From an uncultured Bordetella sp. (lineage in GTDB: Bacteria; Pseudomonadota; Gammaproteobacteria; Burkholderiales; SG8-41), in NCBI GenBank assembly GCA_964533495.1, contig CAZHJU010000009.1, positions 25,041-89,040 on the forward strand: a DNA stretch of 64,000 nucleotides, read 5' to 3'. The translations under genes were made by a program, and so were the position numbers. This document shows positions 1,240 to 41,711 of the stretch, piece by piece (position 1 is the first letter of the stretch; every line of letters begins with the position of its first letter). A model generated the notes under the pieces. The model did no database searches. It was not told the DNA's origin and worked only from the letters and a program-made list of their open reading frames with translations.

Positions 1240-1567
1240 GTCAGTCTCCAGGTTACGCAATGGACAACGGACGGAATGCATCGCATTCCGCGCCGCCCTC
1301 CCTGTCCTCGGTACCTGAGAGTTTTGCGGGCCGTGGCCCGCGTGCCCCTTCGGTGGACCGCCCGCATGCGGACGATCTCTCTCCAGTCGGCTGTGATGCC
1401 GCTTACAGTGATTCTGCCTGAGCGATCATGAGGGATTGCGCCTTCGGCGGGGATCGGAATCCCGCTCTCCTGCAAGCGATGAATGTCAAACGGCAGCTAC
1501 GTGACGGTCGGAATGCACCTCCTTTCCGGACGGCGGCAACGGCCGCGCCCGCTGTTCAGCCCGAAAT

Positions 1568-7058: not shown

Positions 7059-8195
7059 ATGAAAATCACGAAACTCGAAGTCCACATCCTTCGCGCGCCG
7101 GACGAAGGCACGCGCCCGTACTGGGTCAGCAATTTCATCGTGCCCAAGGCCAACGAAATCCTCGTGCGCATGTTCACCGACGAGGGCATCGAAGGCATCG
7201 GCATCGCCACCAGCTACACGCCGATCGAGGCCGCGATCAAGGCCTTCAGGAGCGGCATCGCCGATCTCATCGTCGGGCAGGACCCGCTGGCCCCCGAAAA
7301 GCTGCATGACCGGCTGTTCTGGCTGACCGCGCAGAAAATCGCCTCCGAAAAAGGCTGGACGCGGGAGGCCATCGTGCGCATCGCCGCGGCGGTGGACATC
7401 GCCGCCTGGGACATCGTCGGCAAGGCGGCGAAGCTGCCGCTGTACCGGCTGTTCGGCGGCTTCCGCAGCGAAATCCCCTGCTACGTCACCTGCGCCTACT
7501 ACCGCGACGGCAAGGACATGGCCGAGCTGAAGGACGAGATGCAGATGCTCAAGGCCCAGGGCCACCAGGGCTTCAAGGCCAAGGTCGGCGGCGTGCCGCT
7601 GAAGGAAGACCTGAAGCGCCTCGAACTGGTGCGCGACGTCATCGGCCCCGACAAGGACATGATGGTCGACTGCAACCGCGCCTGGGACCTGCCGACCGCG
7701 ATCACCGCGGCGCGCGAAATGCTGCCGCTCAATCCGCGCTGGCTCGAAGAGCCGGTGCGCTGGGCCGACGACCACCGCGAACTGGTGAAACTCGCGAAAC
7801 AGACCGCCATCCCGCTGTCGGCCGGCGAAAGCGAACTGACCGCCTACGGCTGCCGCGACCTCGTCGAGGACGGCGCGATCGGCATCCTGCAGTTCGACTG
7901 CACGATGATGGGCGGCTTCACCACGGGCCGCAAGCTCGCGGCACTGTGCGAGCTGAACCAGGTGCAGGTCGCCCCCCACCACGACTGCTTCATCCACGCC
8001 CACATCGTCGCCGGCAGCCCCGCGGGCTGCATCGTTGAATCCTTCACCGATCCCGAGCGCGACCCGCTGCAGGCGGAGCTGTTCGAGGATCCGCCGAAAA
8101 TCGCCGGCGGCACGCTGTACCTGAAGGAACAGCCGGGACTGGGCCTGACGTTGTCACCGGCGGCGCTGAAGAAATTCGGCGAAAAAATTCTCTGA
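7059..8195 (+). CDS. enolase-superfamily enzyme (mandelate racemase / muconate lactonizing family)
   Basis: 378 aa starting MKITKLEVHILRAP..., with KAKVGG, MVDCNRAW, WLEEP and ESE.. patterns of the MR/MLE fold. Confidence 0.8.
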   Translation: MKITKLEVHILRAPDEGTRPYWVSNFIVPKANEILVRMFTDEGIEGIGIATSYTPIEAAIKAFRSGIADLIVGQDPLAPEKLHDRLFWLTAQKIASEKGWTREAIVRIAAAVDIAAWDIVGKAAKLPLYRLFGGFRSEIPCYVTCAYYRDGKDMAELKDEMQMLKAQGHQGFKAKVGGVPLKEDLKRLELVRDVIGPDKDMMVDCNRAWDLPTAITAAREMLPLNPRWLEEPVRWADDHRELVKLAKQTAIPLSAGESELTAYGCRDLVEDGAIGILQFDCTMMGGFTTGRKLAALCELNQVQVAPHHDCFIHAHIVAGSPAGCIVESFTDPERDPLQAELFEDPPKIAGGTLYLKEQPGLGLTLSPAALKKFGEKIL

Positions 8196-17589: not shown

Positions 17590-17979
17590 ATGTCTGACCT
17601 GACGAAACAATCCCCGCTCGGCACCTACGTCGAGCATTTAAAGAAAGGCGAACTGGCCTACCAGGTGTGCAAGGACGACAACAAGGCGTTCTTCTACCCG
17701 CGCGCGGTGGCGCCGGAAACCGGCAGCGGCAACCTGGAATGGAAGGTGTCAAAAGGGCTGGGCACCGTCTACACGACCACGGTCGTGCACTACAAGGGCG
17801 AGCCGCCGCTGAACGTGGCGATGATCGACATGGACGAGGGTTTCCGCCTGATGAGCCGGGTCGAGGACATCGACGCAATGGCCGTGAAAATCGGCATGCG
17901 GGTCAAATTCAGGGCGCATCCGGGCGACGAGAAGACCCTGCCCTATCCTGTATTCACGCCCGCGGGAGACACCAAATGA
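17590..17979 (+). CDS. DUF35-type OB-fold protein (thiolase partner)
   Basis: 129 aa after a GAAGGAG RBS. It is translationally coupled (ATGA) to the thiolase-like gene, which is the usual DUF35/SCP-x-thiolase pairing. Confidence 0.65.
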   Translation: MSDLTKQSPLGTYVEHLKKGELAYQVCKDDNKAFFYPRAVAPETGSGNLEWKVSKGLGTVYTTTVVHYKGEPPLNVAMIDMDEGFRLMSRVEDIDAMAVKIGMRVKFRAHPGDEKTLPYPVFTPAGDTK

Positions 17980-19133
17980 CGAACATGCTCAAACGCGGCG
18001 CGATCGCCGTGGTCGGCGCCGCCGAATCCGACCTGGGCCAGGTGGCCCCGCTGACTTCCCCCGTGGACCTGATGGCGCAGGCGACGATGCGTGCGCTGGA
18101 CGACTGCGGCCTGACGCTGAAGGATGTCGACGCGCTGTATGTGGCCGCCACCCAGGTGCGCATGGGCCCGATGTCGCTGGCCGAATACCTGCGCATCAAG
18201 CCCAGGGTCTTCGACGGCACCCAGATCGGCGGCTCGTCGTTCATGACCCACGTCGCCCACGCCCAGATGGCGATCCAGCTCGGGCTGTGCGAAGTGGCGG
18301 TGATCGCCTACGGCAGCACCCAGCGCTCGGTGTCGCGCGCCGCGGCCAGCCCGCGAGAATTCAATCCCGACGAGACCCGGTACCGGCCCATCCTGCCGAT
18401 CAGCGCCTACGCGATGGCGGCGGCCCGCCACATGCACCAGTACGGCACGACCCGCGAGCATCTGGCCGAGGTGGCCGTCGCCGCCCGGAAATGGGCGCTG
18501 ATGAACCCCAAGGCCTGGGAGAAGGAACCGCTGACCATCGAACAGGCGCTCAACGCCCGGATGGTGTCCTATCCCTTCACGGTGCGCGACTGCTGCCTGG
18601 TGGTCGACGGCGGCGGCGCCATCGTGCTGACCTCCGCGGCACGGGCCAAAACCCTGAAAAAGAAACCGGTCTACGTGCTCGGTGTCGGTGAAACGCTGTC
18701 GCACGCCAACATCTCCAGCATGCCGGACTTCACCGTCACCGGCGCCGCGGTCTCCGGCCCGCAGGCTTTCAGAATGGCCGGCGTCGCGCAAAAGGATGTC
18801 AAGATGCTGTCGCTCTACGACGCCTTCACGATCACGCCGATCCTGTTCCTCGAGGACCTCGGCTTCGTGCCGAAGGGTGAAGGCGGCCGCTTCGTCGCCA
18901 ACGGCGGCATCGCCCCCGGCGGCAAGCTGGCGGTCAACACCTCGGGCGGCGGCCTGTCGTATTGCCACCCCGGCATGTACGGCCTGCTGGTGATGATCGA
19001 GGCCATCCGCCAGGTCCGCGGCGAATGCGGCGAGCGCCAGGTCAAGGGCTGCGACGTGGCCCTGGCGCACGGCAACGGTGGCGTCATGTCCAGTCAGTGC
19101 ACCGTCATCTTCGGTTCTGAAAATACTCTCTGA
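17976..19133 (+). CDS. thiolase-like protein (SCP-x / non-specific lipid-transfer type)
   Basis: ATG at 17976 (MTNMLKRGAIAVVGAAESDLGQ...). It has a thiolase-fold C-terminus (NTSGGGLSYCHPGMYG...HGNGGVMSSQ). Confidence 0.8.
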   Translation: MTNMLKRGAIAVVGAAESDLGQVAPLTSPVDLMAQATMRALDDCGLTLKDVDALYVAATQVRMGPMSLAEYLRIKPRVFDGTQIGGSSFMTHVAHAQMAIQLGLCEVAVIAYGSTQRSVSRAAASPREFNPDETRYRPILPISAYAMAAARHMHQYGTTREHLAEVAVAARKWALMNPKAWEKEPLTIEQALNARMVSYPFTVRDCCLVVDGGGAIVLTSAARAKTLKKKPVYVLGVGETLSHANISSMPDFTVTGAAVSGPQAFRMAGVAQKDVKMLSLYDAFTITPILFLEDLGFVPKGEGGRFVANGGIAPGGKLAVNTSGGGLSYCHPGMYGLLVMIEAIRQVRGECGERQVKGCDVALAHGNGGVMSSQCTVIFGSENTL

Positions 19134-32096: not shown

Positions 32097-32636
32097 CTAA
32101 CCCGCCTGCTGCCCCTTCAACAACAACTCCACCACCTGCGGCGTAATCTCCGCCGCGCGCTGATCCAACTGTTCCGGCGTCAGGTTGGCGATCGGGTGCG
32201 GCACCACCAGGAACTTGAAATCCGGCACGCCCCAGGTTTTCGCCATCGCCTTGCCGGTGACCGTGAACACGTGGGTCACGATGGAAGCCGAAGGCACGCC
32301 CTGCTGTTCAAACATTATGCTGTCGAGCACACTGCCCGAGCTGCATGACCCTCAGTCGCCGACACCCGCAACGATGACGTCGCAGTTCGCCTTGTATTCG
32401 GCGAGCAGTTCCGGGCTGGGCGCGGAACCGGAGCTTTTCTTGCGGCGGATCAGGTGCGTCTTGGCGCCGTGTTCGCGCTCGAGGATGCCGGCGACGCGCA
32501 GCAGGATCTGGTCGGAGTTGTACTTGGTGTTGTCGACCAGGCCGACGCGCAGGCCTTTCAGCGACTTCGGCCGCGGCACGAAGCTGATCTTTCGCCCGGT
32601 GGCTTCGGTGGTGGGATCGTAAATCTGGATGCTCAT
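32097..32636 (-). CDS. UGSC-motif (seleno)protein with in-frame UGA at 32352..32354 read as Sec
   Basis: Track ORFs 32352..32636 and 32097..32330 are in the same frame and are separated only by one TGA. The joined sequence reads ...DVIVAGVGD-U-GSCSSGSVLDSIMFEQQG..., a UxxC redox motif. AAGGAGG RBS lies before the ATG at 32636. Confidence 0.7.
32323..32339 (-). promoter_or_regulatory. candidate bacterial SECIS hairpin
   Basis: The mRNA sequence UCGGGCA-GUG-UGCUCGA forms a 7-bp stem including one G-U pair, with a GUG loop. It starts 12 nt after the UGA. Confidence 0.45.
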
Positions 32637-41064: not shown

Positions 41065-41107
41065 AAAAAGGCCGGCAGTCATCCCGCGCGGGGACGGCCT
41101 GCCGGCC
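41065..41107 (-). terminator. intrinsic terminator downstream of the peroxiredoxin gene
   Basis: The minus strand has the stem GGCCGGCAG...CTGCCGGCC (9 bp, with an inner CCCGCGCGGG palindrome) followed by CTTTTTG. Confidence 0.5.
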
Positions 41108-41127
41108 CGGTGCCGCCGCCAACCTGC

Positions 41128-41589
41128 TCAGAGCTTGCGCAACTCGGCGAGCATCTCCTCGCTGGTCGGAATCGTGCCCTGCGGATAGACCTTGGTGTAG
41201 CGGATGATGCCCTGGGCATCGACGACGTAGGCGGCGCGCTTGTCGATGCCGCGCTCCTCGTTGAAGATGCCGTAGGCCTTGCCCACCGCACCGTGCGGCC
41301 AGAAATCCGACAGTAGCGGGAACGGCACGCCGCCGAGGACGTCGGCCCAGCCCTTCAGGCTCGGCGCCGGGTCGATGCTCAACTGCAGGATTTCACAGTT
41401 CAGCTTCCTGAATTCTTCGTAGTTCTCACGGAACCCACGGACCTGGTTGGTTCATCCCCCGGTGAAGGCAAAGGGCATGAACGCGACCACGACCGGCCTC
41501 CCCCTGAACGAGGACAGCGTGACCTTCTGGTCGGAATTGTGCGCGGCCAGCGTAAAATCCGGCGCGGCGCCGCCTGCTTGAATTTCCAT
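41128..41589 (-). CDS. AhpE/redoxin-like peroxiredoxin with Sec (UGA 41452..41454) at the peroxidatic position
   Basis: The track ORF tail ...MEIQAGGAAPDFTLAAHNSDQKVTLSSFRGRPVVVAFMPFAFTGG stops at a TGA. The same frame continues TNQVRGFRENYEEFRKLNCEILQLSIDPAPSLKGW... into ORF 41128..41382. FMPFAFTGG-U-T aligns with the FPLAFTG-x-C-T Prx active site. AGGAGA RBS lies before the ATG at 41589. Confidence 0.75.
41418..41439 (-). promoter_or_regulatory. candidate bacterial SECIS hairpin
   Basis: The mRNA sequence CGUGG(G)UUC-CGUGA-GAACUACG forms 8 bp with one bulged G, with GU in the apical loop. It starts 12 nt after the UGA. Confidence 0.5.
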
Positions 41590-41711
41590 GCAAGTTCTCC
41601 TGGTGATTGTCGTAACGGAGCAGCGGGACTGCAAGGCTGCGCGGACAGAATACGCACGCCCGCGGGCGATCGCAATCGCGGCTAACCACCCCGGCGCGGC
41701 CGGTTCCGCGC

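Follow-up and report, generated by a model that had tools for sequence, protein, structure and literature searches.

A peroxiredoxin gene of the AhpE type with a probable selenocysteine codon at its peroxidatic position in an uncultured Burkholderiales genome

Positions 41128–41589 (− strand) of the window, the whole 64,000-nucleotide stretch of DNA analyzed here, hold a peroxiredoxin reading frame that is interrupted by a UGA codon. The locus raises the question of whether this UGA is read as selenocysteine (Sec) in a working enzyme, or whether the gene is decayed, split or decoded in some other way. Judged from its sequence, the locus is very probably one functional, cytoplasmic AhpE-type peroxiredoxin gene in which the peroxidatic Cys is replaced by Sec.

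Reading frame, flanking signals and conservation of the UGA

The coding sequence of the AhpE-type 1-Sec peroxiredoxin (41128..41589, − strand) starts with the ATG at 41589 and consists of 153 codons and a TGA stop. Translation exactly reproduced the frame and internal TGA reported in an earlier note on this DNA, and reads MEIQAGG...VVVAFMPFAFTGG-TGA-TNQVRGFRENYEEF...LLSDFWPHG...LRKL-TGA. The internal TGA is the only one in the frame. It is codon 46 (41452..41454, − strand), in the context VVVAFMPFAFTGG-U-TNQVRGF (PFAFTGG-U-TNQ), and would place Sec at the peroxidatic position of a P39-x-x-x-T43-x-x-U46 motif. A Shine-Dalgarno-like AGGAGA, read directly from the sequence, is located 6 nt 5' of the ATG (41596..41601, − strand). 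A terminator-like, GC-rich hairpin followed by UUUUU (41065..41108, − strand) starts 20 nt past the stop codon, and contains a 10-bp outer stem (GGGCCGGCAG/CUGCCGGCCU) and an inner 6-bp stem with a computed RNA folding energy of −40.6 kcal/mol (z −1.74). This hairpin was not picked up by a consensus terminator scanner because the loop limit of the scanner is 8 nt. The neighboring genes, both on the same strand, encode an EamA-type transporter and a short-chain dehydrogenase, and the peroxiredoxin gene looks monocistronic. Elsewhere in the window (1396-1482, − strand), a glycine riboswitch aptamer (RF00504, 56.3 bits with a gathering score of 32) is the sole Rfam match.

The UGA is conserved among orthologues. 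In a sample of 40 relatives, all 23 orthologues, from 23 species (21 from genomes of the same genus, with 81–91% identity, and two from other families, with 62–64%), carry a TGA at the same codon and no other lesion, and the same holds for 11 of 11 named Betaproteobacteria/Burkholderiales metagenome-assembled genomes (MAGs) from a species-representative collection. Of 401 genomes sampled evenly from the order, 24 contain an orthologue (E ≤ 1e-45), and these span 5 genera of 3 families. The TGA is present in 23 of these, the 24th is a partial match that begins past the UGA site, and no Cys orthologue was found among the 24 genomes. Cys-form homologues do exist, in P0008 (66% identity) and in actinobacterial AhpE. 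The locus therefore shows the pattern expected of the Sec-peroxiredoxin family, a UGA at the peroxidatic position that is conserved in orthologues and has Cys as its counterpart in homologues. Pairwise comparison of 20 genus members gave a dN/dS of 0.095 for codons 1–45 and 0.107 for codons 47–153.

Subfamily assignment and predicted fold

Peroxiredoxin domain searches were run with Cys substituted for U46. Residues 6–131 match the Pfam AhpC/TSA family (PF00578) with 117.9 bits (cut-off 26; E 3.3e-34), and the match runs across UGA46. The peroxiredoxin active-site set is complete (P39, T43, U46 and R118). In an alignment of 26 sequences that includes both Sec and Cys forms, P39, C/U46, R118 and the LSDxWPHG signature are invariant; R118 corresponds to the residue that is changed in the R116A mutant of AhpE (PDB 4xih). 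The best seven sequence matches among solved structures are all Mycobacterium tuberculosis AhpE (Rv2238c; E ~1e-34), and the next peroxiredoxin subfamily follows at E 4e-19. The earlier claim that the UGA stands in place of the catalytic Cys is borne out by alignment with Cys homologues, since UGA46 aligns with the catalytic Cys45 of M. tuberculosis AhpE (PLAFTGIC) and with the Cys of P0008.

An AlphaFold2 model calculated from the 26-sequence alignment has a mean pLDDT of 96.7. It superposes over its full length on six AhpE entries with TM scores of 0.94–0.95 and an rmsd of 1.2–1.4 Å. All of its top 50 fold matches in the PDB are peroxiredoxins (TM 0.89–0.95), with AhpE at E 3e-19 and the next subfamily at E 2e-16. 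The predicted fold is that of a thioredoxin-type peroxiredoxin. By sequence and predicted structure, the closest relatives of the locus protein are the AhpE peroxiredoxins, and it is assigned to this subfamily on the basis of the model and the matches.

The only Cys of the locus protein, C65, is replaced by V or A in most orthologues, and many orthologues contain no cysteine whatsoever. There is thus no conserved resolving cysteine, and the protein is of the 1-Cys type in this respect. None of the NCBIfam models reaches its cut-off for the locus protein. The best of them, the PrxU equivalog (NF040737), reaches 90 bits where 270 are required and is matched at profile positions 35–173 of 233, so the "PrxU type" label given to the gene earlier is replaced here by the AhpE subfamily.

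M. tuberculosis AhpE (PDB codes 1xxu, 1xvw, 4x0x and 5id2), a 1-Cys peroxiredoxin, has the same length as the locus protein and shares 42–43% identity with it over the structural alignment. The two proteins have in common the P-x-x-x-T-x-x-C/U motif, the Arg, the SDFWPHG signature and the lack of a resolving Cys. They differ in that Cys45 of the mycobacterial enzyme is Sec in the locus protein. Moreover, whereas M. tuberculosis AhpE is associated with mycothiol and mycoredoxin, a different reductant is expected here because the host is a betaproteobacterium.

A quick maximum-likelihood tree was calculated from 89 AhpE-family members, every row with 110 or more aligned residues being kept. The betaproteobacterial sequences (19 Sec and 1 Cys) form one cluster with an SH-aLRT support of 99, and its nearest large neighbor is an all-Cys clade of actinobacterial AhpE, from which it is separated by a long branch. 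Sec also occurs in an Anaerolineae/Acidobacteriota group, in a pair from Eisenbacteria and delta-proteobacteria, and in a single Dehalococcoidia sequence. Five Sec/Cys changes are needed on this tree, and well-supported branches force no fewer than 3 of them. The sole Cys member of the betaproteobacterial cluster, P0008, comes from a TctC-rich contig and is located within a polytomy, so the tree does not fix the direction of the Sec/Cys change. The cultured Anaerolineaceae strain Ornatilinea apprima P3M-1 (L086, NZ_LGCL01000026.1) likewise encodes a Sec member of the wider AhpE-like family (PMAWTPI-U-TNQ).

Downstream hairpin and selenocysteine machinery

The UGA is followed by a short hairpin, the core of which corresponds to codons 52–57, GGG UUC CGU GAG AAC UAC (41419..41436, − strand; nt +19 to +36, with the U of the UGA as +1). 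The core stem consists of GGUUC/GAACU together with a G19-C36 pair, with A35 bulged, giving 5–6 bp; RNAalifold predicts the same 5 bp. The apical loop is CGUGA here and CGUG(A/C) in orthologues, and starts 21 nt after the UGA, which is presumably within the 16–37 nt range used by search models for bacterial SECIS elements. Among 35 distinct orthologues, the synonymous entropy is 0 at all six core codons, whereas codons outside 47–60 average 0.97 bits, and a single one of 105 degenerate codons there lacks variation. Similarly, dS is 0.39 for codons 47–60 versus 0.73 for codons 61–153. The core is constrained at the nucleotide level.

All six core pairs are kept in each of 27 distinct sequences. 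The sole variable stem position is U34, which is C in two of the 27 and changes a G-U pair to G-C; compensatory double changes were not found among these sequences, because the core is invariant. A 4-bp alternative pairing, CGUG/YACG with an NGAAC loop, fits the same invariant stretch. A longer minimum free energy fold (CGUG/UACG plus GGGUUC/GAAUUC) was rejected, as pairs of its outer stem are broken without compensation in 3–8 of the 27 sequences each. The hairpin as drawn in the earlier note, CGUGG(G)UUC-CGUGA-GAACUACG, is present 12 nt after the UGA and stands in its upper part, where 5–6 bp and the loop are conserved, but its lower stem was abandoned since the three pairs concerned (16-37, 17-36 and 18-35) form in only 8–14 of the 27 sequences. 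The stability of the region does not exceed that of shuffled sequences (minimum free energy of the 66 nt past the UGA, z −0.11), and an Rfam scan of the window gave no match to a SECIS family. As in the Sec-peroxiredoxin family, a conserved GU-loop hairpin lies in a stretch devoid of synonymous variation and represents a candidate SECIS element.

The prototype of bacterial SECIS elements, that of Escherichia coli fdhF, is a minimal mini-helix that binds SelB and carries GU in its apical loop. The hairpin at the locus resembles the fdhF type in being intragenic, directly 3' of the UGA and with G-U in the apical loop. In contrast to the fdhF type, it has only 5–6 conserved base pairs and no Rfam match, and its N-G-U-G loop consensus is common to other selenoprotein genes of the source genome.

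The same genome has four further candidate selenoprotein genes in which a hairpin loop of the N-G-U-G type comes after the UGA. One of these, a UGSC gene, lies in the window 9.1 kb from the peroxiredoxin gene (32097-32636, − strand; UGA 32354..32352) and matches the NCBIfam UGSC_fam equivalog with 148.8 bits against a cut-off of 125. Its 6-bp hairpin, UCGGGC-AGUGU-GCUCGA, starts 12 nt after the UGA. The likeness between the two hairpin loops that had been pointed out before is evident (CGUGA compared with AGUGU). The other three are a TlpA-like gene (stem GCCCUC/GAGGGC, loop CGUGCA) and two long UGSC-domain genes (stem CUUGCGGC/GCCGCGAG with loop CGUGCU, and stem GCCCGC/GCGGGC with loop CGUGUU), all of which were first picked from a list filtered for GTG-loop hairpins. 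Only the UGSC gene and the AhpE-type peroxiredoxin gene therefore count as unbiased. A second peroxiredoxin paralogue of the genome is without this loop type, so that N-G-U-G hairpins occur in two of the three selenoprotein genes that were found without the hairpin filter, against a background of 0.42% of the TGA sites of the genome. A P value of 7e-12, calculated for the presence of the loop in five of six genes, was discarded because three of the genes were pre-filtered and the pattern was defined post hoc.

The TlpA-like gene and the second peroxiredoxin gene are adjacent and on the same strand of contig C14 (~17700-18870, + strand; L044), outside the window. The former encodes a signal-peptide TlpA/ResA-like thioredoxin-fold protein with the motif FWASW-U-SSC (UGA at 17955), and the latter a signal-peptide peroxiredoxin with AAFTDT-U-TTE (UGA at 18515), which recurs with its TGA in most genomes of the genus. 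From their sequences, the two proteins may constitute an exported Sec-Sec pair that reduces peroxide. The two long UGSC-domain genes are on contig C1, also outside the window, with UGAs at 7240 and 39701 (both − strand) that are followed by hairpins with CGUG-type loops. They encode proteins of ~575 residues whose N-terminal part matches the Pfam UGSC domain above its cut-off (with 74 and 100 bits; ..GNAA-U-GSC.. and ..GMGC-U-GSC..) and whose C-terminal ~400 residues have no Pfam match.

The machinery for Sec decoding was searched for in the source genome (3.03 Mb, 97% complete). Matches above the curated cut-offs were obtained for selA (581 bits), selB (437 bits) and tRNA-Sec (75.9 bits) on contig C11, with selA within ~7 kb of the other two, and for selD (425 bits) on contig C46, which supports the claim that this organism decodes Sec. 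SelA is found in 114 of the 401 genomes of the order sample versus 23 of the 24 genomes carrying the TGA-containing peroxiredoxin, a comparison that is descriptive only as related genomes are not independent. One orthologue-bearing genome from another genus of the same family (G079) gave no matches to selA, selB or tRNA-Sec in its assembly. It was not retained as a counter-example: its selD (G079:C114:39761-40690, + strand) has an in-frame TGA and encodes a Sec-containing SelD, which suggests that this organism uses Sec, and selA, selB and tRNA-Sec are clustered within 7 kb of one contig in the source genome, so an assembly or binning gap is the likely reason for their absence.

A formate dehydrogenase alpha gene with an in-frame TGA was not found in the whole source genome, where all matches to TIGR01553 are below the cut-off and free of stop codons. 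The Sec machinery of this genome seems to be retained for thiol-redox selenoproteins only.

Alternative readings, proposed mechanism and significance

Three other explanations of the interrupted frame were weighed against decoding of the UGA as Sec. A nonsense-mutated pseudogene, with translation ending at the UGA and the locus in decay, is how gene callers treat such loci; databases hold C-terminal fragments of 84, 91 and 104 residues named "redoxin domain-containing protein", and the unremarkable stability of the hairpin would agree with this explanation. However, full-length orthologues from 5 genera of 3 families all have the same UGA and no other lesion, the genome has a full set of Sec machinery, and dN/dS is ~0.1 both before and after the UGA. 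Equal purifying selection on both halves, combined with a conserved UGA and no further lesions, effectively excludes decay, and the chance that the locus is a pseudogene is negligible. The internal start codons, which permit ORFs of 84–107 residues, could also mean that the locus makes two products, an N-terminal peptide of 45 residues and a C-terminal redoxin fragment translated from a start of its own. This arrangement is extremely improbable: the peroxiredoxin domain and the AhpE fold both span the UGA, the C-terminal fragment would be without the catalytic motif, and the internal starts vary among orthologues, resulting in the different fragment lengths of 84, 91 and 104 residues.

Selenium-free read-through of the UGA as Trp or Cys, by near-cognate decoding, a suppressor or an alternative code, would yield a Cys or Trp protein. 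Several database entries (P0002-P0011) have W at the site, and one has L, and some mis-insertion of Cys may occur under selenium limitation. As the principal decoding, read-through is nevertheless very unlikely. TGA is the terminal codon of this very gene and serves as a normal stop in the genome, a protein with W at its peroxidatic position would have no activity, and the constrained downstream hairpin and the association with SelA are both predicted by Sec insertion and not by general read-through.

With Sec decoding as the preferred reading, the ribosome would reach UGA46, and SelB carrying Sec-tRNA(Sec) would be recruited by the mRNA hairpin 15–33 nt downstream, such that Sec is inserted in place of termination; conservation and the presence of the machinery are consistent with these steps. 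By homology to AhpE and other peroxiredoxins, the U46 selenolate would be located at the start of a helix (residues 44–55), in the pocket formed by the P39-x-x-x-T43-x-x-U46 motif and R118, and would attack the hydroperoxide to give a selenenic acid. Given the lack of a conserved resolving cysteine, the enzyme would depend for its recycling on an external thiol system (glutaredoxin/glutathione or thioredoxin), in a 1-Sec version of the 1-Cys mechanism. In pairs of Sec and Cys enzymes, Sec is expected to confer faster re-reduction and resistance to irreversible over-oxidation.

Sec-containing peroxiredoxins of the "Prx, PF00578, TxxU" type are an established selenoprotein family of prokaryotes, tabulated in PMC13188914 and PMC1088965. 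The locus agrees with this family in the UGA at the peroxidatic position of P-x-x-x-T-x-x-U, the SECIS-like hairpin just downstream, the widespread Cys homologues and the Sec-decoding organism. PrxU of Eubacterium acidaminophilum is the Sec-peroxiredoxin given as shown by experiment (Sohling et al. 2001, as cited in PMC13188914 and PMC1088965). It differs from the locus protein in the length of its profile (233 residues compared with 153), and in its origin from an anaerobic Firmicute, whereas the AhpE-subfamily protein described here comes from aerobic-type Burkholderiales MAGs. Sec-peroxiredoxins had been called rare in the earlier note, a description that does not hold, as the Sargasso Sea selenoproteome contains 43 of them (PMC1088965) and they are its second most abundant family (PMC13188914; PMC1088965). 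A search of the accessible literature by title and abstract returned no paper on natural Sec forms of the AhpE subfamily. In a 2006 survey, FdhA was the sole selenoprotein family of Betaproteobacteria (PMC1794560).

The top matches in public protein databases are almost all fragments of 84–104 residues or carry W at the Sec site, and gene callers routinely split genes of this Sec-AhpE type in two. In entries P0002-P0011, W (once L) has been placed at the Sec codon by the public gene calls, as under a code in which TGA is a sense codon. Two further entries, P0013 and P0019, look chimeric, with an actinobacterial AhpE-like N-terminal half that contains Cys and a C-terminal half that is nearly identical to the Burkholderiales clade.

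A more far-reaching possibility, which we consider doubtful, is that the Burkholderiales clade represents a cysteine-free, obligate 1-Sec form of AhpE-type peroxiredoxin that relies on a lineage-specific SECIS of ~18 nt with an N-G-U-G loop, and that the Sec machinery has been kept in the absence of a Sec-formate dehydrogenase solely for two peroxiredoxins, the TlpA-like protein and three UGSC-domain proteins. If this were true, the enzyme might use an unconventional reductant.

The locus protein adds a member to an established enzyme class, and the recoding mechanism is likewise established. No new mechanistic question is raised, and the value of the finding is mainly for annotation, where a Sec-aware model of AhpE-type peroxiredoxins would repair many database records. 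The finding is also a further indication that some uncultured Burkholderiales have thiol-redox selenoproteins beyond FdhA.
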